Shown: piece after piece, positions 4,758 through 45,221 of the stretch | Position numbering within the stretch: position 1 is the first letter of the stretch | Layout: each line of letters opens with the position of its first letter | Assembly: GCA_028279595.1 (NCBI GenBank) | Contig: JANQNK010000003.1 | Span: 160,001 to 224,000, forward strand | Direction: 5' to 3' | Length of the DNA stretch: 64,000 nucleotides | From: Thermoplasmatota archaeon | GTDB taxonomy: Archaea > Thermoplasmatota > JAKEGO01 | Position numbers and translations under genes: made by a program | The notes under the pieces: generated by a model | The model's database searches: none | What the model was told of the DNA's origin: nothing | What the model saw: the letters and a program-made list of their open reading frames with translations, nothing else

Positions 4758-7700
4758 TTATTTTCTGGTGGTTCTCCGCTTGCTGGGGGGTTTGCTGGAA
4801 TTCACTATAGGAGGTCGTTTTACCTTCTTACCCTTCATTGGAGATATCGGCCCCCCTTCATCCTTGGGTAACGATCTCGTCTCTCTCCTCTCCTCCATCA
4901 TCCGTTTCCGTTTGACGATACGTAGCAGGAGGACGACAAGTATCACAGCAGCAAGGAAAAGGATGGAGTTCTGCAGAACCATACTTGAATCGATCTCGAG
5001 CGGATGGTCGCTAGTGTCCTTATGGGGATTTCTGATCACGATCTCCTGTTCTATGATATCCGAATAATGGGCGCCGTCGGAAACTCGGATCTCGAATGAG
5101 TGTCTTCCGCTCCCATAATCGTCGGCCCATAGCCTGAGGGTCAACATGAAAGACGTTAAATTGACATGATCGACATTGGGACGGACCTCTGTCCAATTAC
5201 CACCATTCACCTTCATTTCCACGGTGAAAATGTTTCCCCTGTCTTCTGTCACATTGAATATGATGTAGAATGATGTACCGACATTTACCTTTTTGCTGGT
5301 CCTTTCATCGATCGAAATGACCGGAATTCCATCGATGTCCCCGGGAGGCTCGATATAGGTCGTGAAGGACCTTGACAACGGGGAGAAATCATATGTGTCT
5401 GTCCTGATGTAGTAATGGTGGTCGACTATTCCATCTTCATTCTCGTCCGTTGTCCATCTCGAATAGTGGTTGTTCCACCAGTAGATCTTCTCGATTCCTG
5501 CTGCATCGATATTTTCATGGTTTCGAACGAAATCGTTAAAGTAAATCTCTCCGTTCGTCTCATAGGTCTTTATCCCACTCTCCAGATTCGCGTACATCCA
5601 CGATCTCGTAATGTTCAATTCTTCGGTATCATAGATTAAAAATCCAAATTCGTTATGAGAGACGTTGACCAGGGAGATGTCTACCTGATAGCAATCAATC
5701 AAAGATATCCCAACATAATGGTCGGTGATGCTGCAGTTGGAGATCATCACATTCGAGCAGCTGTCGATGTAAAGGCCGTCCGATGTGAATTGGCTACTCA
5801 ATGGATATGGAAAATCGTATCCACTGCCCCCGTCCAATGTCAAGTTCATGATCGAGATATTGTCTGAATCCCAAACCATGACTGCTCCCATCAGAGGAGC
5901 GATCATCATGTCTCTGATCGTGACATCAGAGCAATTGACCAGAATGAGCTGAGTGGAATCTTCGGTTATCACTGTCTCTACCTCGGACACAACCAAGGTC
6001 GGAAATTCCCCATCGATCGAGCAATTTTTGAATTCTGATTCCATGAATCCCATGGTCCCGAGTGGTTCGACAAAGATATCACCAGATATATCGCACTCGG
6101 TAAACCGATTCGTCCCCCTAACGAAAACGATGAAATCCGAAGCTTCGATCGAACAATCAGTGAATCGGCTGTCGCCCGATAGGATGATCAACGTCCTGTT
6201 CGTAATTGAACATTCTTTGAACCGATTATCGTTTCCATCGATCTGAACGGATCCTGTCCCATTGATAACCACATCATCGAATCGGTTTCGATCCCCTGTC
6301 ACGATGAGATCGCCTGTCATCCGGTTCAACTCGATCCCATCGATAGAATTGTCGTTGCCGATTATCTCGAACGATTGGTTCGCGAATCCTACCCCATTCA
6401 CATCCGCGATCTCGTTCCCATTCCCTCCTATCCTGATGTACGACTCAGGGCCGACCTCTGAGACGGATGAATGATCGAAAGACATCGATGCATTGGAACC
6501 ACTTATCGAAATGAAGTTCGATATAAGGGTGGTATTGACTATCGATCCATTATTACCGATGTCCAATTCCGAAGGCAATACGTAATACCAATTGAAGCCA
6601 CTGGATACCAGCTGGAATCGGGAATCGGCAATATTGACGTCATCGTTCACGCGTAAACGAAGGTATGCGTTATCGACGATACAATCTGAGATCGTTACAT
6701 TATCGAAATCAGCGATGTAAAATCCAATCGTAGGATAACTGGAGATGTAGTATTTTCTCAAGATATTGAGAATATTAACATTTCCGATCCTGAGCCTTTG
6801 ACCATTCGTTAAATAAAGCCCTTCAGTGGAGTTCTGGACAGACAGTGAATCTATGACAACATCGTTAATCCCTTCCATTCTGATACCTTTTTGAATTCCT
6901 TCACACGTGATGTTCCTAACCGTGATGTTAGAAGAAGAGTAAACACGTATCCCGTCACCCTCCAACATCAATGAGTTCTGGACGGTGATGTTCTTACAGG
7001 ATACCGCAATCATCCCTCCCACTCCATCATAGGTCTGGTCCTCCTCATCGACCAAGACGAGATATCTACCGGTTAGTGTGGAACAATTGACCAATGAGTA
7101 CGATCTGACGCGAGCTTCGAAATATATATTGTAATCCAATCCTCCCCTGATAACACAATTCATCAGAGTCAGATCGTTTGCATACTCGACGTCCAGCCCA
7201 TCCTCCGAAAGAAATGTGGAATTCACCGCAGTGAGATCGGTGCGGTATAGTTCGAAGTCACTCAGGTCTGTTTCGATCGTGACATTGTCGATGTACACAT
7301 TGTGACAATCCTTGAAGATCATTCCAGTAGAGGCCCCGGTGATCGTGGAATCCTTAACCAACAGGTCATGGCAATCTTCGGCAATGATGGAATTCAATCC
7401 ATTCTGGTCAACTATCGTGATATTGCTACAATTATTGATGATGATTTGTCCAGCGATATCAGAATACAACATGTCAGTCTGGTCATGGATAATGATCAAT
7501 GGCCTTCCATCCACGGTTGTGTTTTCAATGATGATATCTTCGATTGCTACTTCCTCTCCAATTACCACCCCTGAACCGAATAGTTCGCAACCGCTTATGT
7601 AGGTCGTTTCATCGATAAAAATGGACCCCATCGTGCAATTGGAAATGGTGACATTTTTCGCTACTGTTGGTCCAAGGATACCTAATCCATAACCGGTTCG

Positions 7701-27699: not shown

Positions 27700-27858
27700 G
27701 AGCCACCCAAAGCGGACATGTGTAAAAAGGGTATCCCGAAGCCGAACGAACTGATAGCAGGAGCACTGGGACCGGGCGCTTAAGACCACGTTGACCTCCA
27801 TGAATAACGTCCGGGCCAAGTGCTCCCTCATCCGGTTATGAAAATTGATAATTGGAGA

Positions 27859-27886
27859 CCACCCCCGGGCCCATCCCCGGGGGTGG
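27859..27886 (-). terminator. GC hairpin just outside the distal att; probable original 3' element of tRNA-Trp
   Basis: CCACCCCCGGG-loop-CCCGGGGGTGG directly abutting the att repeat. Confidence 0.55.
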
Positions 27887-27887
27887 A

Positions 27888-27905
27888 TGGTGGGAGCACT
27901 GGGAT
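27888..27905. repeat. att site (distal copy) TGGTGGGAGCACTGGGAT
   Basis: Identical to 36576-36593. Confidence 0.92.
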
Positions 27906-28004
27906 GAGAAGCCCACCGAGTACCTTGAGAATCTGAATCAATACGGCCAATTCATTCGAGAATTGTTCTCGAACCGTCCTCCGAGGATCGGTCAAACCGC
28001 TTAG
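27906..28004 (+). CDS. C-terminal half of an att-spanning ORF (complete only in the excised circle)
   Basis: 32 sense codons + TAG, in frame with WWEHWD encoded by the att core. Confidence 0.5.
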   Translation, partial: EKPTEYLENLNQYGQFIRELFSNRPPRIGQTA

Positions 28005-28020
28005 TTAGGGTTGATGTACA

Positions 28021-28149
28021 ATGGAATCGGAACTGAGTGATGAGGTTAACGAGAGGAAAGAACTAAAGAAGCACGCCGAGGACATCGAAAAGGCATTCGA
28101 CTACAATCCCGAATGGAACCACCTGAAAAAGAAGAAGAAGAAGAGGTGA
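28021..28149 (+). CDS. 42-aa protein with Lys-rich tail (not in ORF track)
   Basis: MESELSDEVNERKELKKHAEDIEKAFDYNPEWNHLKKKKKKR; its 3' end contains the GAGGTGA RBS of the next gene. Confidence 0.55.
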   Translation: MESELSDEVNERKELKKHAEDIEKAFDYNPEWNHLKKKKKKR

Positions 28150-28153
28150 ATTT

Positions 28154-28540
28154 ATGGAATCATCGGGGACTGAACTTCCTGAATTCTCTCATTTCGACGT
28201 TGCACCTCACGGCATACCCATTCGAGTTGACATTCCAAAGGACGGTGTCTATGTCGGCCGTGTTCTCGAATCGGAACTCCTTAATCCGAATAAGGAACCG
28301 GTGAACTCCGTCTTCTATCATGTGAAGATCCTCACGGTAGAGTGTGAGTGTGAACCTTCTCTTACCGTTTACGATATTCCTCGACTCCGCTGTCCAATAG
28401 ACGAGCAGGAAATCGTGTCCATTGGAAACGTCCTTGTCATCAATGTATTCCTCATGAGTCAACGGATGGTTTTGACTCCTTTATCCGAAATCAAGCAGTC
28501 ATTGAACATGATCAAAGAGGTCCAGGGGGCTTTGTTTTGA
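28154..28540 (+). CDS. Hypothetical element protein (beta-rich)
   Basis: GAGGTGA RBS; 4-nt overlap with next ORF. Confidence 0.65.
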   Translation: MESSGTELPEFSHFDVAPHGIPIRVDIPKDGVYVGRVLESELLNPNKEPVNSVFYHVKILTVECECEPSLTVYDIPRLRCPIDEQEIVSIGNVLVINVFLMSQRMVLTPLSEIKQSLNMIKEVQGALF

Positions 28541-28947
28541 AGTTGTCACCTGAGGAGACGATCACTCATACGCAAGCTGGCTCGTCACGTCTCCTTCAAG
28601 AGCGGAACGTCCCCATCGATACAGTCCTCCCCCCGGACCTCGTCCTCCTCACAGTGTTCGTTGAATGCAAGAACGGAATGGCCGTCAGAGACTATGATGT
28701 AGTAGTGACGGGTGAGGACGAAGTCTTCCGAGGTAGAACCGATAAGACCGGCCACATCGACTTCTATGTCCCTGACGGTCAAGAGATGATGATCGTCAAC
28801 GGGGATGACGTTTACGAACTGTACATGGAAGGCAACGGATATGTAACGCTTACGTCTCCGACGGACCTACCGCCGAAAAGACCACCTTCAGCGTCACTTC
28901 TCGAATCATTGCTATTGCCACAGGGTAGTCAACGTCCTTCCACTTAG
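28537..28947 (+). CDS. Hypothetical protein, possibly transthyretin/carboxypeptidase-regulatory-like beta fold
   Basis: LTVFVE..NG.AV....V.V......GRTDKTG...F.VPDG pattern. Confidence 0.5.
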   Translation: MKLSPEETITHTQAGSSRLLQERNVPIDTVLPPDLVLLTVFVECKNGMAVRDYDVVVTGEDEVFRGRTDKTGHIDFYVPDGQEMMIVNGDDVYELYMEGNGYVTLTSPTDLPPKRPPSASLLESLLLPQGSQRPST

Positions 28948-28960
28948 TGTCACGCTTTTC

Positions 28961-29028
28961 GCATGTCGTCCGGGGTATTGGTGATTCCGATCCTCTCTCA
29001 TCTTCTCCCGGGCCCCCGGACGGCATGT
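28961..29028 (+). terminator. 15-bp stem-loop closing the left-end operon
   Basis: GCATGTCGTCCGGGG...CCCCGGACGGCATGT with G-U pairs on the + strand. Confidence 0.5.
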
Positions 29029-29237
29029 ATTATAAATTCGATAAGTAATTCCAATATCCCAACTGATGAATGAGATAATACTATGACAAATGTAGAAGGA
29101 TACTATTCATCTATTTTGTAATTGGTTCAGTTACGATTATAATAATTCGTATTCCCAATTGAAGGATATGAATAGGATCCATATTTAGTTGTTCTAATGT
29201 AGATGATGAGTTTAACCGGGAATAAGAAAATTGGTAG

Positions 29238-29502
29238 AGATGTACCTCACCAGTAACTAACGACATCGAAGACGATGGTATACTTGAACATTATTTTGTA
29301 ACTGACAATGGTTACACATATGTTATTAAACCATATGGTGGATATATATGGAAGGTACGTACCAAGGGTAATTTCAGAGGTACTGGGTGCTTTGTTTTTT
29401 CTTGCTAGGGCATGGTAAGTTAATATTTGATAATCTGATGATGATAACAATAATTATACACCATTGATGCAAAGAAAGGTGTTATATTATATACATTAAA
29501 AC
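29238..29502 (+). pseudogene. Degraded FG-GAP/PQQ-type beta-propeller gene remnant
   Basis: Stop-interrupted fragments TSPVTNDIEDDGILEHYFVTDNGYTYVIKPYGGYIWK and LYTIDAKKGVILY. Confidence 0.4.
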
Positions 29503-29727
29503 AACTGTAAGAAACTGTTCTATTAACCAATATCCATTGGAATGAATAATTAAAAATAGAAGTATAATAAATTGGTTTCAATCCTATAGTACTGTTATGG
29601 TATTGTTTTATTATTAGAAGATGTCGCTATCTAATGTATATTTATGGTCATATACTATTTATACCTGTAAATTCGCTTCTATTTTGTTAATGAATTGAAG
29701 TGGTCAATGGTCTTACGACGTGATAGT

Positions 29728-29940
29728 ATGGGCTCTAGAAACCTAAAAAAGATTAGCGTGAAAAAGATCAAATTTTATTCTTATTTATTGTTATATTTGA
29801 TTGGATGGGTATTTTTTATCGTGGGTACAGTTCATTTAATATTGTGTTACGACCAAAAAGACTTTCGGACTCCATTTATTCTAATTATAGGTATAAATTT
29901 AATTTTCTTGAGTTTATACCATATTGACTCGGATTACTAG
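29728..29940 (+). CDS. Small 2-TM membrane protein
   Basis: Basic N-terminus followed by two hydrophobic helices. Confidence 0.45.
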   Translation: MGSRNLKKISVKKIKFYSYLLLYLIGWVFFIVGTVHLILCYDQKDFRTPFILIIGINLIFLSLYHIDSDY

Positions 29941-29946
29941 TGTTAA

Positions 29947-30268
29947 CCGATAAGGCTATCCAAGTATCGGGGCGTTGTTTTACACGTGTACCCGTCTCAC
30001 ACGTGTAACAACAACGTAGGCGGGAGATGAACGGTAACGTTCATCGAGGGGGCTATTCCCTATACTGTTTTTCAATTCTAACCGTAATAGGTATTGTCTC
30101 CGTGGATCTACCGTCGCACCCTCCCGTTAGGACGACAGAAGGAGGGGCGGTCTATTCTTTTCTACCTCGATCTTCTCTGTATTCTCTATGCCCCTCCCGG
30201 CGTCCGTGGGGAGGGGTGCCGACCGGGTCGCCGCAGGCGACCCCTATGAATCTAATTTAAGGTCGGCA
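29947..30268 (+). other. GC-rich, highly structured non-coding block (ncRNA or origin-like site)
   Basis: At least six stems inside otherwise AT-rich DNA; see findings. Confidence 0.55.
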
Positions 30269-30451
30269 GGTTGAGAGGAATTAGAATGTTTGAAAATGAA
30301 AACATTAGCTATTCCTATGAAATTCTTAAGAAAACGTCCGAAAAGGGGTTGTGAGAACTCTTTGGGGATTTTCATTTTATAAATACTTTGGATACAATGG
30401 TCCTAAAGTTATATGTAGTATACAAGTATATACACTAAAAGTAGTGGTAAA

Positions 30452-30742
30452 ATGGGCGATTACACGACCGTAAAGATCAGCAAGGATACTCTTCGATTAA
30501 TGGACCGCGTTCAATCCTTTTTCACCTATCGTTACGGTAAGAAATTGACCAAGGATCAAGTCCTTCGTACAGCTCTTCTCAAGTTCGATTATCGACTAGC
30601 TAGTAATCTTCATCAAACGGACCTCTCTTTCAACGAATATATCAAGATGCTCGAGGACGACGTCGGCTTGTCTTCGTCCGAAGGAGAATGGAAGACCTTC
30701 AAGGGCGTGAAAGTGTGGTGCGGTCCCGTCAATAAACGTTAA
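30452..30742 (+). CDS. Ribbon-helix-helix (CopG/antitoxin-like) DNA-binding protein
   Basis: YTTVKIS strand, then helices KDTLRLMDRVQ and TKDQVLRTALL; palindromes GTATAC and GTATATAC upstream. Confidence 0.65.
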   Translation: MGDYTTVKISKDTLRLMDRVQSFFTYRYGKKLTKDQVLRTALLKFDYRLASNLHQTDLSFNEYIKMLEDDVGLSSSEGEWKTFKGVKVWCGPVNKR

Positions 30743-30933
30743 TACTGTTTTACTGAAATTGGAGTTGGGGGTCCCCCGGTAATAACATGAGATCATTTCG
30801 GAGGTAAGTACCGGATCGGACACGGTCCCTTCGTAATTCACTGGGATTACAAATAAAAACCTACCACGTAAAAAAATGGTCAATGGAGATATAAGGGATG
30901 GTGGACTATTTGAAAATAGCGGAGTGGTGATAT

Positions 30934-32241
30934 ATGAAGGGAATAATCACTAAATGGATTGTTATTCAAATAATCGTTTTATTAATTATTAGTTCGGTGA
31001 CATATTTATACGGGAAAGAGTTGAAGAAAGAGGAAGAAGAAATAGTGGGTCGGTATAAAACTAGAAATCCTAACGATATTATATTCGATAAGACTATGAC
31101 ATATACATTATATCAATCAATGATTGGTGATTTACATATTGAGAATTCTCTGGATCAATTTCCGTTTACGCCAGAAAATGAAAATCAGACAAGATATGAT
31201 AACAATAATTATACAAATTCGTTTTATGCAGATTGTCAAGTAACAACAAATTCGTCACATGTAACAGATGAAAACTTAGTATGGATGTTTCCAGATCCAT
31301 GGGATGATGGAATGCGACCCATGGGGTCGGTTCTATTAACAACATATGTGAATATTACACATGATTGTCATCTTAATGATGCGTTATTCAGTTTCTGGTT
31401 AACAGCTCGGTGTGATGATGAAGAATATAAAAATAGCCAAATCGATTTTAAAATGAAATCTTCAATATTATTACCTGATAAATTGATGACAGATCGATTA
31501 AGAGATACTAGGGGTCGGATGATGTTTTCTCCAAATGAGACAATTCGTGTTGGAGAGCAGAAGCAAATTATCTTTGATTTTAATTTCATAAATCCTTCGA
31601 CATGGAGATTAAATACGGGTGATAAATTATTATTTCAGTTACAATATTGGATTATGAATCCAATAATATTAGATCCAATTCAAAACGTGTCAGAGGAAAA
31701 TGTACCGGTGAAATTATTTTTAATTTATGGTGGTGTTAATCCATCTTATTATAATATTTCATTAGAAAGGGGTATTGGATTAATTCATGAGATTGATTAT
31801 TCATTTAATGAACCAAACGAATATCGATATTGTTTTATTCCTCCAATTAATCATTCGATTAATAAGGTAACATTAGTTATTGAGGGATTAAATCTAGAAT
31901 ATATTTCTTTTTATTCCTCCTTGTCAATGAATAATGGTGATAGACTAAACAAAAGTTGGGTTTATATTTATTTACCATATAATTACCATCCCTGTTTAAC
32001 TCTTCGGTTTCAATTAGAAATGATTAATGGTGAAATTGGATCTTTTAAAACGTATCTTGATGGTGAACCCGAACAAAGGTATGTAAGGGAAGGTAAGGAG
32101 GGAATTCATGATGATGTTATGTTTTTGTTAAATATTGTGATTCCGGTATTTTCGTCTGTAATATTAATTCAAATAGCGTATAGATATCAAAAGAAAAAGG
32201 ATTCTCAGAAGTCAGTAAAGTCAGAAAACTTTCATGATTAA
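30934..32241 (+). CDS. AT-rich secreted/membrane-anchored hypothetical protein
   Basis: GGAGTGGTGA RBS, N-terminal hydrophobic segment, C-terminal TM plus basic tail. Confidence 0.7.
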   Translation: MKGIITKWIVIQIIVLLIISSVTYLYGKELKKEEEEIVGRYKTRNPNDIIFDKTMTYTLYQSMIGDLHIENSLDQFPFTPENENQTRYDNNNYTNSFYADCQVTTNSSHVTDENLVWMFPDPWDDGMRPMGSVLLTTYVNITHDCHLNDALFSFWLTARCDDEEYKNSQIDFKMKSSILLPDKLMTDRLRDTRGRMMFSPNETIRVGEQKQIIFDFNFINPSTWRLNTGDKLLFQLQYWIMNPIILDPIQNVSEENVPVKLFLIYGGVNPSYYNISLERGIGLIHEIDYSFNEPNEYRYCFIPPINHSINKVTLVIEGLNLEYISFYSSLSMNNGDRLNKSWVYIYLPYNYHPCLTLRFQLEMINGEIGSFKTYLDGEPEQRYVREGKEGIHDDVMFLLNIVIPVFSSVILIQIAYRYQKKKDSQKSVKSENFHD

Positions 32242-32411
32242 TGACGAGTGACGTAGCGATATTTATGTATTGTATATCCCGCTAATGTGTTTAATGTGAA
32301 GGAAAAACCTTCGCAAACTCCTACTCTAGCGTTAAAAAACGTAAGAAAAGGGGTCATCACAACAATTGGTGTTTGAGAAATTATTTATAGAATAAACGTA
32401 TAGTATAATCC

Positions 32412-32528
32412 ATGTCAGTGAAAATGGAATTTCAGTTTGAATTATCGAAGAATATCGCTGATATTGATCAAATATTAATGAATATTGAAGCAAGTGATGA
32501 TGAATTATTCGATTTACTGTATTTATAG
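32412..32528 (+). CDS. Possible 38-aa acidic peptide (not in ORF track)
   Basis: MSVKMEFQFELSKNIADIDQILMNIEASDDELFDLLYL, ends 18 nt before the next gene. Confidence 0.3.
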   Translation: MSVKMEFQFELSKNIADIDQILMNIEASDDELFDLLYL

Positions 32529-32546
32529 GTAAATGACGGTGTATTA

Positions 32547-33116
32547 ATGGCTCATAAAAGAGGTAAGGGAAAGAAGAAAGGTGGGAAGATTGAACCATTT
32601 CCTGAAGCATTAAAACGAGTTGAGGTATTAGCTCGAAGACTTAATCGAAAGGTTGAACGTGCCGTAGCAATACAGACTACTCCTGAAGAGGAAAAGGAAT
32701 TCCATTCAATACTTGTTGAACATGGAAAATTTGCAATACCATTTCGTTGTGAAGGTGAAGTGGTTATTTGTTTCATGCCTATTGGTATCGAAAAAGAAGT
32801 TAAAGAAAAATTTAAAGGAGTACCGTATGAAAAGCGGAGACGGTTATATTTTCACTTATTACGAGATCTACAATTGAGTAACAGAGTTGGATATACAATA
32901 AAACCTCTTGGGATTAAGTTGATTGATCAAATTGATGAAGTATATTTAGAATGTAGCAGTATTATTGAGGATACGAGTGGTGAATCTGCAAATAGACTTG
33001 CAGATATTATTCAAGAAATGGTCATTATGATGTTAAAGGCTGGGAAATATTTTGGTGGTGAAGAAGAAAAAAGTGATTCGAAACCGGATACTTTTACGGT
33101 AATGTATCATCAATAA
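32547..33116 (+). CDS. Hypothetical protein, possibly DUF2299-like
   Basis: 189 aa; 'KRRRLYFHLLRDL' central helix; 15 nt from the next gene. Confidence 0.55.
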   Translation: MAHKRGKGKKKGGKIEPFPEALKRVEVLARRLNRKVERAVAIQTTPEEEKEFHSILVEHGKFAIPFRCEGEVVICFMPIGIEKEVKEKFKGVPYEKRRRLYFHLLRDLQLSNRVGYTIKPLGIKLIDQIDEVYLECSSIIEDTSGESANRLADIIQEMVIMMLKAGKYFGGEEEKSDSKPDTFTVMYHQ

Positions 33117-33131
33117 TAGGTTGAGGATAAG

Positions 33132-33908
33132 ATGGAAAAACGGTTTGTGGCATTTTTCGATGTGTTGGGTTTTTCCGATCAAATTCAGCGGACAAGTGCA
33201 AAAAATGTGATGAAAGAGTATTCGAAATTTATTCAGGACTTATCCAAATCGGAAGGTTCGGAACTTAATGCGTTTATTAGTTCAGATTCAATTATTGTAT
33301 ATACTGAGGATTTATCTGTTGAATCATTTAAATCTATAGTGGATTATTCGGGTAGGTTGTTTGTTAGAGCTTTTCGTAATCATTTTCCATTACGTGGTGC
33401 AATAGATGGTGGAGAATTCGAAATTAGTGATGATCGTCTAGTATATGTTGGTCGTGCATTAATTCGGGCATATAAAGCTGCTTCATCTCAAAAATTGTCA
33501 GGTGTGATTTTAACACCCAATTGTGAAATGGTCTTAGAATCATCGGAATATGCTGGAATTCTCGAAGGAATGGATCGATCATTGAAACTAATTCAAAGGT
33601 CAATACAGATAAAAACTTCTGGTGTCTCTGGTTCATCTGACCGTGAAGGAATTCGGTATTGTGTTAATTGGGTACATGTTTTACACAGTGGTCGAGGCAG
33701 TCGGAAGGAACAGATGACGAAAAAGGAATTTTACTCAAAATTTGTACCAAAACGTAAGGCTGATTTTATTTTTGAATTAGATGTTGAAGAAAAAATCGAA
33801 AATACATATGGATTTTACGATTATACATATAAAATATTATCTCAGACTCGGTTTTTACCTCGTGGTAAAAGGGAAATTTGGCGTAGAACTATCAAGAAAT
33901 CAAAATAG
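33132..33908 (+). CDS. Divergent class III nucleotidyl-cyclase-like protein
   Basis: FVAFFDVLGFS (first Asp), ISSDSII (second Asp), LRGAI..G, VG.ALI.AY. Confidence 0.65.
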   Translation: MEKRFVAFFDVLGFSDQIQRTSAKNVMKEYSKFIQDLSKSEGSELNAFISSDSIIVYTEDLSVESFKSIVDYSGRLFVRAFRNHFPLRGAIDGGEFEISDDRLVYVGRALIRAYKAASSQKLSGVILTPNCEMVLESSEYAGILEGMDRSLKLIQRSIQIKTSGVSGSSDREGIRYCVNWVHVLHSGRGSRKEQMTKKEFYSKFVPKRKADFIFELDVEEKIENTYGFYDYTYKILSQTRFLPRGKREIWRRTIKKSK

Positions 33909-34092
33909 ACTGTTTTCAATGATGTATAATTGTGGTTGTATGGAATTCAATGACGCATAACTATCGATGTGCGTCAAGATCGTTATGAATATGAGATGGG
34001 CTGATGTTTACATGTAGGTATCTGCGTTTGGTGAAATCCGAGAAAATTTTATGGATTAACGAAATTATGAATGTGAATGTGAATATGAGGCG

Positions 34093-34491
34093 TCATAATT
34101 CCAATTTTGCTTGCGGTGATAATGGATCAGGGAATGAGTTTAGAATGAATTGGTGGAGTTTGTATGATAAGAAAATCGTGTAACATGATGACACACCGAT
34201 TACAGGTAATGTAATATAAGGATTGGATGAGAATGAAATTGCGATTGTGTTTAATGTTATTATTATTACTCCAATTGGAAGTACGAGTAATACTTTTTTC
34301 AGTTCAGTTCGAACTGATGTTGCTACTGTGATGGCTTGAGGGGGTGTTGGTATAGATTCGAAATAGGGGCGTAGTAAATTCTTCCAATTATCTACGTATC
34401 TTACTAGACCTATGAATACTAAACCGATTAAAGCTGCTAATGATTGCGCAAATGTAGAAAGAATCCATATTGATTGTTCTTCGGTTACCAT
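34093..34491 (-). CDS. Small 3-TM membrane protein
   Basis: ILSTFAQSLAALIGLVFI plus two further hydrophobic helices. Confidence 0.65.
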   Translation of the reverse strand: MVTEEQSIWILSTFAQSLAALIGLVFIGLVRYVDNWKNLLRPYFESIPTPPQAITVATSVRTELKKVLLVLPIGVIIITLNTIAISFSSNPYITLPVIGVSSCYTIFLSYKLHQFILNSFPDPLSPQAKLEL

Positions 34492-34547
34492 GAATAATGA
34501 GTGGGTGACTAATGTAAAAAAGTTTGTAAAAAAATAGTCAATGCCGA

Positions 34548-35189
34548 TTATAAAAAGTTGATGTTATCATATTTGAATGTTTCAACCCAATCCGGAAAAT
34601 TTTCAAAACATTGGTGCAAATCAAAATGATAATCTTTGAAGATGTCAGAGTGAGTTTCGGGTAGTGGTAATATATTACGCATTTCAAAGACAAATAAATC
34701 TAGAGGGTAAATGTCGGTTGGGAATAAAAATCCAGGTCCTGTATTGGGTATGAAATTTCCCGCGGGATATCGTGGAATTTCATAAAAGGGGTTAAATCTG
34801 TGGCAAATCGTGCTGATTCGTGAAGAATGAAGAAATGGATAATTTCGATTCTTATCGAGTAATCTACACTGGTTGAGTAATTCCTCAAGATCGTGTATTC
34901 TATTCGGAATCTCATTATGATTTGCGTATTTAATGAATGATTTTAGGTATAATTCAATACATTGTTGAGCTTCAAAAAAACTGTAGGGATAAATGTGGTG
35001 ATAGAACAGGATTCGGGATAAGAAATAATGAAGGTCTGCTGAAGAAATGAAAATGGTGTAACTCATGTTTTTAAGTTTGGTGTCGAAATCAGGATCTTTA
35101 ATACGTTTCGATATGTTAACAAATTCTTTATTTTTTAAAGTTGTTAGTTCGTCTACGTACATCTTTACATCATCTAATAGTGATTTCAT
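34548..35189 (-). CDS. HEPN-domain protein
   Basis: F.AQQCIELYLKS...HDLEELL...Y...RYP pattern. Confidence 0.8.
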   Translation of the reverse strand: MKSLLDDVKMYVDELTTLKNKEFVNISKRIKDPDFDTKLKNMSYTIFISSADLHYFLSRILFYHHIYPYSFFEAQQCIELYLKSFIKYANHNEIPNRIHDLEELLNQCRLLDKNRNYPFLHSSRISTICHRFNPFYEIPRYPAGNFIPNTGPGFLFPTDIYPLDLFVFEMRNILPLPETHSDIFKDYHFDLHQCFENFPDWVETFKYDNINFL

Positions 35190-35283
35190 TATTCATCGGT
35201 ATAATGGAGTAACATTGTATAAAAATGTGTAATAAAAATGGTTAATGTGCACTATATATGTGGAGATATGTGGTGAATTGTGA

Positions 35284-35454
35284 CTAGGGGGGTAGTGGTT
35301 TGTAGCGGTCTTCAAGGATATTTAGATAATATCTTGTTGCCTCTTTGATGATATCTGCTCTGTTGTTGTAACCAGCATCTGGATAGTCTGAAAGGAAGTT
35401 GTCAATTCGGTTAAGTAGGTTGTTTGGTAAACTAACAGAAGTATGTCGGGGCAT
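35284..35454 (-). CDS. 56-aa CopG/RHH regulator divergent from the integrase (not in ORF track)
   Basis: MPRHTSVSLPNNLLNRIDNFL...GYNNRADIIKEATRYYL, a canonical RHH pattern. Confidence 0.8.
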   Translation of the reverse strand: MPRHTSVSLPNNLLNRIDNFLSDYPDAGYNNRADIIKEATRYYLNILEDRYKPLPP

Positions 35455-35554
35455 GTCTCAAAATGGGTCTAAGAACTATATAAAACATGTAAATATTTAA
35501 ATGGAAATATGGCTGTAGATATATTTATATATGCATATTTGTATTGTGGTGTAG

Positions 35555-36538
35555 ATGCCCACCGATGTGGAGGTCGTGAAAACATCTGAAATTTCCGTGT
35601 TAGAGCGCTGGATACAGGAGATGCGAGCTCGGAACGTAGGCGATTATACAATTAAGCGATATCGTGCGGTTATCGAGCCATCACTTTCCTTCGCCTTGGA
35701 TGAGGGTTATCCTGACCCTATTGATTGGGATATCATTCAAGTTGGATCAATTCTTGATGGTATAGGTCGCAACTCCTGGAAGATCCGTGTGATGAAGCTG
35801 TTCTTAAAGTGGGTCGGGAACGACGTCCTTGTGAAGAACAGGATACTTCATCCGAAGCATCAACATCTTGGTCGATGGCTAAATCAGAACGATTGTCAAA
35901 AGCTTGTTACTCTTGCCCAAACCCCACTTGAACGAGTCGTCATCCACTTTATGATGGAGTTGGGACTACGACGAACTGATCTCTTACGTCTACGTGTGTT
36001 AGATATCGATTTCAGTTGCTCCCGCGTTAACGTACGAGGTAAAGGCTTTCATGACGGCAAGCTACGTGTTCTCCCATTCCATCCTTGTTCACAAGAGGTA
36101 ATCCGGTCATATCTCGAATACCGCGAATACGTTTTCCAAGTTGCACGTCAACGAAGTATTACTCAACCCGAGGATCCTGAAAATCTCCTCGTATACGAAA
36201 GAGGCGGAGAAGTCATAGGATACAAGAGCACCGCCATCGATAATCTCATTCAACGACTAGCGTCACGTCTAGGATTTCATTTCAGTTCTCACGATCTTCG
36301 GAGAACCTTCGGTCGCAACCTTTACTATGCGACAAATCGTGATATCGCAGTAGTTTCTTACGCTCTCGGTCATAGTGATATCCGGACCACGATGAAGTAC
36401 CTGGGTCTAGGATATGATGACCTTCAAAAAGGCATGGTAGACATGGCGAAGATGTGGGAATCGCAACCACATATTGCCGCCGAAGTGGTACTAAAACGGC
36501 GAAATGGAGGACCTAGCAATGAACCCAATTCAGGCTGA
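35555..36538 (+). CDS. int: Tyrosine recombinase/integrase (intact, not split by att)
   Basis: GLRRTDL (R), VRGKG (K), HDLRRT, LGHSD, TMKY catalytic residues. Confidence 0.93.
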   Translation: MPTDVEVVKTSEISVLERWIQEMRARNVGDYTIKRYRAVIEPSLSFALDEGYPDPIDWDIIQVGSILDGIGRNSWKIRVMKLFLKWVGNDVLVKNRILHPKHQHLGRWLNQNDCQKLVTLAQTPLERVVIHFMMELGLRRTDLLRLRVLDIDFSCSRVNVRGKGFHDGKLRVLPFHPCSQEVIRSYLEYREYVFQVARQRSITQPEDPENLLVYERGGEVIGYKSTAIDNLIQRLASRLGFHFSSHDLRRTFGRNLYYATNRDIAVVSYALGHSDIRTTMKYLGLGYDDLQKGMVDMAKMWESQPHIAAEVVLKRRNGGPSNEPNSG

Positions 36539-36593
36539 AACAACTGAAAAACCCCGCAAAAGCGGGGAAAACGACTGGTGGGAGCACTGGGAT
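36519..36593 (+). CDS. N-terminal half of the att-spanning ORF
   Basis: GGAGG at 36506-36510, 8 nt before ATG 36519; reads in frame through the att core. Confidence 0.5.
36547..36567 (-). terminator. Element-supplied terminator for tRNA-Trp
   Basis: CCCCGC-TTTT-GCGGGG followed by TTTTT on the minus strand. Confidence 0.65.
36576..36593. repeat. att site (tRNA-proximal copy)
   Basis: 3' 18 nt of tRNA-Trp including CCA. Confidence 0.92.
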
Positions 36594-36907: not shown

Positions 36908-37047
36908 GAGCCACTCTCCGTTGACTGCGCTGGAATAACTGGTTCTCCTATTTAAAGGTTGATAGGTTGGTTCAGTCTCTCAAAAGTGTGTTGGTATGTA
37001 CCTTTCAATGTGGGAACGTGTATATATCCAAAATCACATTCCGTGGT

Positions 37048-38205
37048 ATGAAGATATGGGTGGCCACCTTAGTTTTCATATTAGTGCTCAGTGGATATGG
37101 GGCGCGAGCATCTTTACCGGTTCAACAGCTTGAAGTCAGTAATGTGTATAGGACTGCAAATCCTGATGTATTCAATGATACGATCGTCTGGGAAAGAGAT
37201 GATCCTTGGCATGACCGCATAATTCAATCATACGATATTCGGTCTAACACCAAATCTATCGTAACCAATCAAACCAGATTCTATTCGAACAATCTTAGCT
37301 GTGACCTTAGAGGAAAAGCACGTAATCCCACTGCACTCGAAGATGCGATCATATGGCAGGATGAAATATTCTATGATTGGTCACAGACGATCGATGGGAT
37401 TGTATATTTGAATCTTACTAATGGACAGCTGTCATTAGTATCAAATGCAACGGAATATTCCGTCAATCCAGACGCTTATGGAGACATCATCGCATGGGAA
37501 TCAGGCTGGGATCAGAAGAATATCACATATCATCATATCTCAACTAACGAAACCATTAAAATCGATAGAAAATACAACCAAATCACACCGCAGGTGTATC
37601 AGAATTATCTTGTCTGGAATGAATATGATGGGGTCCCCTCTGTCGGTTGGACTAGGATCTACGTGAAGAATTTAATCACAAGCGAAATCGTCCAAGTAGG
37701 TGGAGATGGTGTAAAGTCCCCCTCCATTTATGGTGACAAAATTGTCTACGAGCATTGGGTATTTCCAGATGATGAAGGTGATGAACTCATTCGAGACATA
37801 TACATGCATAATCTAACAAGTGGAATTACAATCCCCATCTGCACCGATCCTGGTGATCAATTGATCCCTAAGATCTATGAGGATCAAATTGTTTGGATTG
37901 ACAATAATGATGGCGGATACCATATCGTATCTCACAATTTACAAACCGATGAAACTCTTAAGGTATGTACAGATCCCGAATTCGATCGGTACCATGTCGA
38001 CATTCATGGAAATGTAGTCGTATGGAGCGGTCATAATGAGGACGAATCAAGGTTGTTTTATTCGAATCTTTCATGGGAGCCGATTCCCGATCCGCGAATA
38101 ATCGAAACTATCGATAATGGATCCATAACCTCTGAAGTGATCATTGGATCATTGATTGTGCTGGGTATCATCGGACTTGTAGGTTTATGGAAGCAAAAGT
38201 CCTGA
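37048..38205 (+). CDS. Secreted beta-propeller (TolB-like repeat) protein, membrane anchored
   Basis: Repeated P.I.GD.IVW units, DIYMHNL, C-terminal TM; lower GC. Confidence 0.8.
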   Translation: MKIWVATLVFILVLSGYGARASLPVQQLEVSNVYRTANPDVFNDTIVWERDDPWHDRIIQSYDIRSNTKSIVTNQTRFYSNNLSCDLRGKARNPTALEDAIIWQDEIFYDWSQTIDGIVYLNLTNGQLSLVSNATEYSVNPDAYGDIIAWESGWDQKNITYHHISTNETIKIDRKYNQITPQVYQNYLVWNEYDGVPSVGWTRIYVKNLITSEIVQVGGDGVKSPSIYGDKIVYEHWVFPDDEGDELIRDIYMHNLTSGITIPICTDPGDQLIPKIYEDQIVWIDNNDGGYHIVSHNLQTDETLKVCTDPEFDRYHVDIHGNVVVWSGHNEDESRLFYSNLSWEPIPDPRIIETIDNGSITSEVIIGSLIVLGIIGLVGLWKQKS

Positions 38206-43772: not shown

Positions 43773-45221
43773 TCAATATCTGCGTCTGCGGACGACGATG
43801 GCCATGAGGAACATCGCTGCCAGCGAGATCATCACTGTGAATTCCGGGACCTTCTCAGGAGCGTTCGTCGGGAATGGGTCGTCAGCGGGCGCGTCGTCCT
43901 CGGCGTTCCCTGCCCCGTCAAGCGGATAAGCTCCGGTGCCGTTCCAGTTGTCCCACCAGTTGCCCTCGGATCCGTCCGTCCATTGATTATTGCCGGTCTC
44001 GTCCGCCGCCTGCGGCGAGTTGTGGTTCTTCAGGAAGTTGTTGTGGTGGATGACGTTGTTCCAGCAGTCCCAGCCGACATAGACGCCGTACTCATCGTTC
44101 CAGATGATCTCATTGTAGGTTATCGTGTTGTTCTCGGAGCTCCCCAGTCCGATACCGTACAGCAAGTTGTACTGGTATGTGCAGTTAGTGATGAAAGTCC
44201 AGTTGCAGTTGATCAACGTCGTTCCGTTGTAGGAGTTGTTGAAGACGTTGCAGACCATGAAGGCGTTCCGGTCGCTCATGGTCATCAGGACGCCGTCGTA
44301 GGTGCTCTCGCTGATCTCGGTGTTCTTGAAGAGGTTGTCATGGCACAGGTACATGTATACCCCTCTCCAGGTATGGTTGGATATCGAACAGTTGTCGAAT
44401 GTGTTGTTGTTGCAGGATTCCAGGCTCAACCCATCGTAGTTGTCCCACTTGAAACCATTCTCGTGGAAGGTGGTGTTCCGGAAGGTGTTGTTCTCAGCGC
44501 TGTACCAACCCAATCCCTCGTAGTAGTTCCTCGAGAGGTCGCACATCTCGAACGTGTTCCAGTATACCTGCCAGCCGCCTATCCCGGCCCCAGTGGTCCG
44601 GTTCACGGTACAGTTGTAGAAGTAACTGCCGTTGACGTAGTGCATCTGGATGCCGACCTCGGCGCCCCTCATGAAGAGGCTGTTCGTGAACGTCACGTTG
44701 TCTATTGTCTCGAGGTTCACATTATGGGTCCTGTAGACGTAGAGGTTGTCGAAATAGCTCCAGTTGACGTTGACGAGGTTCAGCCCGTAACTGTCGGAAC
44801 CGAAGGTCCTGTTCATGGAGCAATTATATGCCCGCGCGTTGGAGCAGTTCTGAATGTCCAGGATCCCGTACCTGTACCGGTGGCTAGTCATCCCGATGTT
44901 CTCGATCTTCACGTCATCGGCCCTGACCGCGATCGCGCTCCCGTCCTGCCCGCCATCCACGATGGTCTCGTTCGTGCCGTTGCCGATCAACCTCATCGAC
45001 TTGTTCACGACGACGTTCTCCTCGTACAGGCCCTCGTGGATGAAGATCCAGTTCCCGGCCGTCGTGTTGTCGATCGCATCCTGGATGTTGTCGAAATCCG
45101 CTCCAGCCCAATCATCGTCGACAGTGACCTCCAATGGTCTTCCACCAACCAGTCCTGCAGTAACAAGCACGATCGAAAGCAATCCGACTATCGTCAACAT
45201 TCGTACCGGTCCCATTTTCAC
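43773..45221 (-). CDS. NosD-like parallel beta-helix surface protein with PEF-CTERM signal (paralog)
   Basis: NIQDAID, GLYEENVVVNKS, GNWWDNW, VPEF + TM + RRRR. Confidence 0.85.
   Translation of the reverse strand: MKMGPVRMLTIVGLLSIVLVTAGLVGGRPLEVTVDDDWAGADFDNIQDAIDNTTAGNWIFIHEGLYEENVVVNKSMRLIGNGTNETIVDGGQDGSAIAVRADDVKIENIGMTSHRYRYGILDIQNCSNARAYNCSMNRTFGSDSYGLNLVNVNWSYFDNLYVYRTHNVNLETIDNVTFTNSLFMRGAEVGIQMHYVNGSYFYNCTVNRTTGAGIGGWQVYWNTFEMCDLSRNYYEGLGWYSAENNTFRNTTFHENGFKWDNYDGLSLESCNNNTFDNCSISNHTWRGVYMYLCHDNLFKNTEISESTYDGVLMTMSDRNAFMVCNVFNNSYNGTTLINCNWTFITNCTYQYNLLYGIGLGSSENNTITYNEIIWNDEYGVYVGWDCWNNVIHHNNFLKNHNSPQAADETGNNQWTDGSEGNWWDNWNGTGAYPLDGAGNAEDDAPADDPFPTNAPEKVPEFTVMISLAAMFLMAIVVRRRRY

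Follow-up and report, generated by a model that had tools for sequence, protein, structure and literature searches.

An integrative element in the tRNA-Trp gene of a Thermoplasmatota archaeon and its possible dependence on a larger relative in the same genome

The window analysed here is a 64-kb stretch from a metagenome-assembled genome (MAG; 2.29 Mb, 86% complete) of a Thermoplasmatota archaeon, and it contains an 8,706-bp insert bounded by attachment (att) repeats in the 3' end of an intron-bearing tRNA-Trp gene. Positions given below are those of the window unless a contig is named. The insert is very probably a genuine integrated element of the same family as a 14,530-bp element residing in a tRNA-Pro gene of the same MAG. 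The best reading of the data is that this family is an uncatalogued one of Thermoplasmata, with the virus-like tRNA-Pro element as its full-length form. The tRNA-Trp element is tentatively regarded, as a possible rather than a probable explanation, as a still-excisable derivative that would depend on a helper, a satellite-like hitch-hiker. This explanation was put first because the integrase, the ribbon-helix-helix (RHH) gene, the gene bridging the att site of the circular form (attP) and the att sites are intact, and because conserved non-coding signals persist without a cognate initiator while a full-length relative is present in the same bin.

Integration into the tRNA-Trp gene

The features defining the ends of the element were as follows.

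27888-27905, no strand assigned: attL, the displaced copy of the last 18 nt of tRNA-Trp
36747 to 36576, minus strand: tRNA-Trp(CCA) with a 96-nt intron, called by ARAGORN in the long-intron setting; its last 18 nt (36576-36593) form attR
36567 to 36552, minus strand: element-borne terminator-like hairpin CCCCGC-TTTT-GCGGGG with a T-run, now located 3' of the tRNA
35555-36538, plus strand: intact tyrosine integrase of 327 aa (Pfam Phage_integrase, 6e-19; PHROG integrase, 1e-26)
35284-35454, minus strand: 56-aa RHH regulator, divergent from the integrase and kept in all three elements of the family described below
36504-36593, plus strand: proximal half of the attP-bridging open reading frame (ORF), overlapping the integrase 3' end and reading through the att core
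27906-28004, plus strand: distal half of the attP-bridging ORF

The repeat TGGTGGGAGCACTGGGAT was identical at 18 of 18 positions between 27888-27905 and 36576-36593, and a search of the 2.29-Mb genome found these two copies only, both at the element ends. Read on the minus strand, it gives the final 18 nt of the tRNA, encoded CCA included, and the perfect att repeats of the original prediction were thus confirmed. The tRNA-Trp gene itself was missed by ARAGORN under default settings and by Rfam at gathering thresholds because of its 96-nt intron, and was called when the intron limit of ARAGORN was set at 200 nt. The hairpin and T-run now following the tRNA agreed with the replacement terminator that had been proposed. 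The original trailer hairpin of the tRNA was left just outside attL (approximately 27852-27887); it differs from the element-borne hairpin and resembles the trailer located 3' of tRNA-Trp in the sole available genome of the same family. A comparison of tRNA-Trp loci in related genomes had been suggested, and this genome (n = 1, of a different genus) indeed provided an empty site, in which tRNA-Trp is followed directly by the trailer with neither insertion nor integrase. The upstream genes for L41e and an SSB-like protein are also present at its tRNA-Trp. The GC content was 0.44-0.52 at both ends of the insert, 0.28-0.35 in the middle and approximately 0.57 in the host flanks, in agreement with the AT-rich cargo between moderately GC-rich ends noted originally. 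These results showed that tyrosine recombination had placed the element in the final 18 nt of tRNA-Trp, with both the tRNA end and a terminator restored.

The catalytic residues of the integrase had been reported as intact, and R139, K163, H246, R249, H273 and Y282 were all found to be present and invariant in an alignment of six sequences. The protein also gave a XerA-like match (2e-30) that was below the cut-off. The nearest integrases outside this genome were 36-42% identical and carried Methanomassiliicoccales or Thermoplasmata names, their contigs being uninformative, and the matches in phage and plasmid records were partial with identities of only 27-33%. No related locus was found through the integrase in genome or viral contigs, and no pleolipovirus relative of it was detected at E 1e-5. 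The family profile of the 56-aa regulator matched the RHH domain of NikR (6e-5) and HicB3 (2e-3).

The two halves of the attP-bridging ORF lie at opposite ends of the integrated element, and the ORF is complete only in the circular form, where it encodes a 62-aa product ending in RIGQTA. The corresponding ORF of the tRNA-Pro element encodes 53-55 aa, and its C-terminus ELGQTA matches that of the tRNA-Trp element.

Two further observations were made around the tRNA-Trp gene. Its 96-nt intron, which we take to be the classical archaeal self-guiding tRNA-Trp intron, contains box C/D-like motifs (GTGATGA, and CTGA twice) and the sequence ACTGGAGC complementary to the anticodon arm. On the far side of the tRNA, an ORF of 412 aa (36967-38205, plus strand; GC 0.40-0.41) is located between the L41e and SSB-like genes, which are adjacent in the same-family genome with no such ORF between them, and it is a second small AT-rich insertion. 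Its product has an N-terminal hydrophobic segment, a C-terminal transmembrane (TM) anchor, 10 sequons and repeated '...W(E/Q)...' units; Pfam gave no match for it, and it looks like a putative surface beta-propeller.

Sister elements and a conserved non-coding block

The genome encodes two paralogues of the integrase (44% and 43% aa identity) and a more distant one (33%), each adjoining a tRNA gene and a drop in GC content. The two closer ones belong to the following elements.

Contig C7, 7400-21947: element of 14,530 bp in tRNA-Pro(TGG), with att AAATCCGGGCGGGCCCA at 7400 and 21930
Contig C14, 112264-117596: element of 5,320 bp in tRNA-Arg(TCG), with att CCCTGCGGGTCCG at 112264 and 117584

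All three elements have the same end structure, consisting of the tRNA 3' end, a convergent integrase and a divergent RHH gene, and the RHH proteins of the tRNA-Pro and tRNA-Arg elements are 56% and 45% identical to the tRNA-Trp copy, respectively. With each circle closed and oriented so that the integrase reads on the top strand, the markers were collinear in the order of integrase, bridging ORF, first operon gene, an Ig-like part of a 282-aa protein, the conserved block described below, an inverted-repeat motif and RHH. The tRNA-Pro element shares with the tRNA-Trp element the integrase (44% aa), the RHH (56% aa), the block (82% nt), the C-terminus of the bridging ORF and an AT-rich accessory region beside the RHH gene. 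No published description of the tRNA-Pro element was found.

The difference lies mainly between attP and the block, a distance of 2 kb in the tRNA-Trp element versus 9 kb in the tRNA-Pro element, where a ten-gene operon is located. Among its products are a 263-aa protein with a Walker A motif (GKVASGKT) and a weak match to terminase ATPases (0.0015), a 282-aa protein that has four TM helices and a signal segment, one of 305 aa whose N-terminus holds a hydrophobic segment, and an 832-aa protein with weak Ig-like hints; the last gene encodes a soluble 416-aa protein, whose KIYAK...RFEI stretch may resemble the tyrosine motif of Rep_trans. A TIR protein is encoded beside the RHH gene. The genes for the 263-, 211-, 110-, 105-, 305-, 832- and 416-aa proteins and the TIR protein are absent from the tRNA-Trp element, which contains approximately 1 kb of gene-less DNA at the place of four genes of the tRNA-Pro element. 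The tRNA-Trp element in turn has its own cargo, together with a gene for a 96-aa protein that is common only with the tRNA-Arg remnant.

In the tRNA-Arg element, the integrase gene is interrupted by a TAA codon, and of the 416-aa gene just the final 172 aa remain, at 84% identity. This element is a decayed derivative of an element of this kind. It also carries a beta-helix protein, and ARAGORN called an 85-nt 'tRNA-Ala(CGC)' inside it (C14:114635-114719).

A fourth tRNA-integrated element (10.2 kb, C9:44275-54492), to which the distant integrase (33%) belongs, was considered as a family member and rejected, as it has the opposite layout and no shared genes. It occupies an intron-bearing tRNA-Ala(CGC) with an 18-bp att, TGGACCCAGCGGGATTTG, and its integrase is distal to the tRNA; partial att copies are located at 44148 and 44180.

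The non-coding sequences common to the elements were as follows.

29945-30320, plus strand: structured GC-rich non-coding block common to the three elements, a candidate origin or non-coding RNA
30299-30385, plus strand: first copy of a promoter-like segment containing a TATA-like box, ahead of the 96-aa gene
32304-32389: promoter-like segment, copy 2, upstream of the 189-aa gene
33949-33999, no strand assigned: imperfect inverted-repeat motif, common to the tRNA-Pro and tRNA-Arg elements

The part of the block at 30119-30302 was 82% identical to the tRNA-Pro copy over 191 nt. Comparison of the tRNA-Trp and tRNA-Arg elements gave 89% over 83 nt together with stretches of 84% and 91% (53-83 nt each), two of these three matching stretches being located in the block and one in the promoter-like segment, while the block copies of the tRNA-Pro and tRNA-Arg elements were 98% identical over 82 nt. 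With the same global aligner, the score was 0.86 for the block core, 0.62 for the integrase genes and 0.59 for shuffled sequence. The integrase genes were near alignment saturation, and the block was far more conserved than coding DNA.

The block of 376 nt was predicted to fold with a z-score of -5.5 on the plus strand and -4.2 on the minus strand. The consensus consists of two GC hairpins and an enclosing stem around an invariant AT-rich loop, with two compensatory pairs among the three copies. No Rfam match was found for the block, and an Rfam search over the whole element at E<=1 gave chance matches only. When the block was compared by BLAST with 400 Thermoplasmatota genomes, no match outside this MAG was found, and one of its 23-mers had zero exact matches in the genome and viral contig collections. 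In the tRNA-Pro element, the block is located directly downstream of the last gene of the operon (416 aa), and we infer that it is the cis-acting origin of the family.

The promoter-like segment has the form AAAAC.TT...AAAACGT..GAAAAGGGGT...TATA-like box and is also present in the tRNA-Arg element, upstream of the homologue of the 96-aa gene. The duplicated segment may be a shared operator.

Gene content of the tRNA-Trp element

The remaining features of the element, in order from attL, were as follows.

28021-28149, plus strand: charged 42-aa ORF of no family, starting 17 nt past the bridging ORF
28154-28540, plus strand: 128-aa ORFan, corresponding in position and, weakly, in sequence to the 147-aa gene that begins the operon of the tRNA-Pro element
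28537-28947, plus strand: 136-aa ORF, corresponding to an Ig-like middle part of the tRNA-Pro element's 282-aa membrane protein
28950-29940, no strand assigned: AT-rich stretch (GC 0.30-0.33) with no convincing gene
29695-29940, no strand assigned: predicted 81-aa ORF with two TM segments, a candidate and the sole ORF of the AT-rich stretch
30452-30742, plus strand: 96-aa protein with an RHH-like N-terminus by pattern only
30934-32241, plus strand: 435-aa ORFan with an N-terminal signal-like hydrophobic segment, a C-terminal TM anchor and 9 N-x-S/T sequons
32547-33116, plus strand: 189-aa protein whose sole lead is a weak DUF2299/YbjN-like match (atlas 0.89)
33132-33908, plus strand: 258-aa cargo protein with a predicted class III nucleotidyl-cyclase fold
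34093-34491, minus strand: 132-aa small membrane protein
34548-35189, minus strand: 213-aa HEPN-domain cargo protein (PF05168, 4.3e-11)

No Rep, primase, helicase, MCM, relaxase or capsid family was found among the element ORFs in Pfam, PHROGs, NCBIfam or PADLOC, and neither a Walker A nor an HUH motif was present in any real ORF of the element, nor was any ATPase family. DUF7845 (PF25227) and Rep_trans (PF02486) were absent from the whole genome. The element is therefore shown to lack a detectable replication initiator, NTPase or transfer gene, within the detection limits that apply to ORFans. The four libraries and the motif scans bore out the lack of Rep, primase, MCM and relaxase described originally. 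The claimed lack of any structural protein held for capsid families and less so otherwise, as the 435-aa ORF is a possible envelope protein and the 136-aa ORF represents part of the membrane-protein gene known from the sister element. Of the two RHH genes claimed, the 56-aa one was supported by its NikR match, while the 96-aa protein is RHH-like by N-terminal pattern only, a sequence search of the PDB having given no match for it. A homologue of the 96-aa protein, 35% identical, is encoded in the tRNA-Arg element.

The GC skew of the plus strand was +0.13 to +0.35 over 29000-35500, with +0.23 to +0.35 across the cargo, and equal over plus- and minus-strand genes. The cargo of the tRNA-Pro element showed a skew of the same sign, weaker. 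Such strand-independent skew is consistent with, and no proof of, past asymmetric replication of a rolling-circle-like type. A simple repeat scan found no CRISPR arrays in the MAG.

Two ORFs connect the left part of the element with the operon of the tRNA-Pro element. The 128-aa protein matched the product of the first operon gene (147 aa) at E 0.019, with EPVNSV in both, and had no relatives among 5.8 billion sequences. A tblastn search with the 282-aa protein gave E 1.3e-7 to 28459-28866 in the frame of the 136-aa ORF, which has neither the signal peptide nor the four C-terminal TM helices of its counterpart. The 435-aa protein had no relatives among 1.84 billion representatives and one weak atlas lead (0.79); it is a type-I surface-glycoprotein-like ORFan and a candidate envelope protein with a predicted spike-like topology. 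For the 189-aa protein, the PDB sequence search was empty. An exact 20-nt direct repeat, ATGATAACAATAATTATACA, was found at 29441-29460 in the gene-less stretch and at 31196-31215 inside the 435-aa ORF, which is marginally unlikely by chance for DNA of this composition.

As for the 258-aa cargo protein, the AlphaFold2 model (pLDDT 86.6) matched entries of the PDB in Foldseek at E 2e-7 (probability 1.0), by which the protein is predicted to have a class III nucleotidyl-cyclase fold. It has approximately 56 distant relatives, mostly bacterial, in which D10, D52, R88 and G89 are invariant. These relatives stand alone beside defence-type genes in two of the three contigs examined, and no conserved partner was found next to them in the three. 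PADLOC gave no match to a Pycsar/CBASS-like system in the element, and the neighbours of the cyclase-fold gene had no nucleotide-sensing domain. The bacterial relatives (approximately 245 aa) adjoin either a restriction-like PLD/helicase gene or genes for a YobI ATPase and an SLFN/AlbA protein, and these settings are defence-island-like; the family is unnamed and also appears as phrog_23933.

Possible helper dependence and alternative explanations

In the explanation put first, excision would give a circle in which the integrase-led operon is rebuilt, as in the haloarchaeal pleolipovirus SNJ2, and the conserved block would serve as the cis-acting origin of the family. Its own initiator and particle genes being lost, the tRNA-Trp element would depend on a full-length relative to provide them in trans for both its copying and its spread. 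It would meanwhile be carried vertically, paying its way with the AT-rich cargo (the cyclase-fold, small membrane and HEPN proteins) beside the RHH switch.

The comparison with SNJ2 is based on published features of this virus and its relatives. Haloarchaeal pleolipoproviruses frequently have a coding sequence (CDS) that crosses attP and lies between the integrase and the gene that follows (PMC7911831). When SNJ2 circularises, an operon that includes the integrase is restored; its final gene encodes the initiator Rep-Arvir, the origin is a conserved hairpin region just 3' of the operon, and replication needs every ORF of the operon (PMC13107129). The tRNA-Trp element resembles these viruses in its integration at a tRNA 3' end, the small attP-spanning CDS that begins within the 3' end of the integrase gene and is complete in the circular form alone, the integrase-led operon that would be rebuilt on excision, and the conserved hairpin-rich non-coding region downstream. 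On the other hand, it lacks Rep-Arvir/DUF7845 (absent from the whole genome), an NTPase and recognisable counterparts of VP3 and VP4. The bridging CDS is not followed by a CxxC protein, pleolipovirus relatives of the integrase are lacking at E 1e-5, and the host belongs to Thermoplasmata instead of the haloarchaea. The element thus appears, on the basis of its sequence, to have an SNJ2-type switch layout and yet to fall outside Pleolipoviridae, with neither initiator nor NTPase.

Small elements without a full particle module are also represented by pSSVi and pSSVx, the satellites of Saccharolobus fuselloviruses. pSSVi uses an integrase of its own to enter a tRNA gene, and its spread requires a helper virus. 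The helper dependence of these satellites is demonstrated, whereas here it is inferred, and both the virus type and the host phylum differ. The original prediction of a satellite or helper-dependent island accordingly stands as far as a candidate helper type, the 14.5-kb tRNA-Pro element, is present in the same genome, and only as an interpretation with regard to the dependence itself. In pSSVx and the haloarchaeal SRCEs, plasmid-type replication genes are kept, whereas none is detectable in the tRNA-Trp element. Before these SRCEs, pSSVi and pSSVx were the only archaeal satellites known (10.1101/2025.02.15.638363). A likeness is also seen to bacterial phage satellites (P4-like, PICI) in the integrase, the small regulator, the reduced gene content and the variable cargo at a fixed position, although they have no homology to the tRNA-Trp element. 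Such satellites carry accessory or defence cargo by the integrase and usually keep a primase or replicase and genes redirecting packaging.

Several points weigh against helper dependence. The truncation of the membrane-protein gene and the 1 kb without genes have the look of decay, and the tRNA-Arg sister shows that decay in place occurs in the family. The 416-aa protein is a putative initiator that gave no DUF7845 or Rep_trans signal, no sequence match in the PDB and an AlphaFold2 model that was unusable (pLDDT 32); a BLAST search against the 400 Thermoplasmatota genomes found nothing like it beyond this MAG. The block could be a non-coding RNA instead of an origin. The co-residence of helper and element rests on metagenomic binning, and the family was seen only in this MAG, with no population support for a maintained reduced form.

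These points lead to the alternative that the element is an inert remnant, in our estimation nearly as likely as the explanation put first and the most serious of the rivals. According to this, deletions removed the replication and particle genes from a provirus of the family, and what is left is passed on only vertically and is decaying, its integrase still being intact through the recency of the loss. The 136-aa ORF as a truncated piece of a membrane-protein gene, the approximately 1 kb without genes where the sister has four, the clearly decayed tRNA-Arg element (TAA in the integrase, a 172-aa remainder at 84%) and the lack of relatives elsewhere to show that a reduced form persists would all be expected of such a remnant. 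They have to be set against the open frames of the integrase, RHH and bridging ORF, the att copies perfect over 18 bp, and the block and two motifs conserved far more than coding DNA despite approximately 44% aa identity between the integrases. The long open frames of the cargo, lying in DNA of 30% GC where random frames close fast, also argue against decay. In any case, the original prediction of a self-standing 'minimal' design did not hold, as the truncated gene and the gene-less 1 kb indicate loss from a larger virus-like backbone. The contrary case named at that time, a deletion remnant of a known provirus or plasmid backbone, was borne out in part by these signs of descent, the backbone being that of the sister. 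The suggestion of an undescribed family was upheld, no sequence relatives having been found in the collections searched.

Helper dependence can also be carried one step further, to a working integrative satellite of an enveloped, pleolipovirus-like Thermoplasmata virus that is replicated and exported by the 14.5-kb relative. In this form, which we consider rather unlikely, the element would have given up the initiator, the ATPase and most particle genes, and would have kept the origin-like block and the switch gene completed by excision.

It is improbable that the element is a cargo island with no replicative stage, one that excises and re-integrates or travels in vesicles, with the block as a gene for a regulatory or other non-coding RNA and cargo that benefits the host, for example in virus defence. 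The HEPN protein and the class III cyclase fold are suggestive in this respect, as are the TIR protein at the equivalent place by the RHH gene in the sister and the cyclase-fold relatives beside a restriction-like helicase, YobI ATPase and SLFN/AlbA in two of three contigs; PADLOC, however, gave no matches, no nucleotide-sensing effector was found, and the cyclase-fold relatives have no conserved partner. The block folds better on the plus strand, where it uses G-U pairs, and the promoter-like segment is duplicated ahead of both cargo operons. Against an RNA gene, Rfam has no match to the block, which is located where SNJ2 has its origin, directly 3' of the last gene of the sister operon.

A novel kind of minimal virus or plasmid that is autonomous, with the 435- and 81-aa proteins as its envelope and with host enzymes or an unrecognised initiator acting at the block, is likewise hardly to be expected: complete pleolipovirus genomes are 7-17 kb long, a range that includes 8.7 kb, the 435-aa protein resembles an envelope spike in its signal, C-terminal anchor and sequon pattern, and several ORFs without detectable relatives leave room for function, but the element has no NTPase motif, whereas its sister has one, its membrane-protein gene is truncated, the sole lead for the 189-aa ORF is chaperone-like (DUF2299/YbjN), and no known initiator is as small as the products of the 128- and 136-aa ORFs.

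Proviruses and other mobile elements of Thermoplasmatota have barely been catalogued, a survey of more than 7,000 genomes having reported 30 provirus regions in Thermoplasmatota and Nanobdellota together (PMC13573593), and archaeal virus satellites are known from very few systems. The genome described here contains a size series of one family (14.5, 8.7 and 5.3 kb), showing which parts are kept on shrinking: the integrase, the RHH gene, the attP-bridging gene and the structured non-coding block. It also points to a concrete pair of helper and hitch-hiker and to a candidate origin. If the enveloped-virus satellite reading is true, the tRNA-Trp element would be the first satellite of a pleomorphic archaeal virus, with defence-type cargo; even if it is only a remnant, it still marks the conserved non-coding signals and the cargo slot of the family for annotation.

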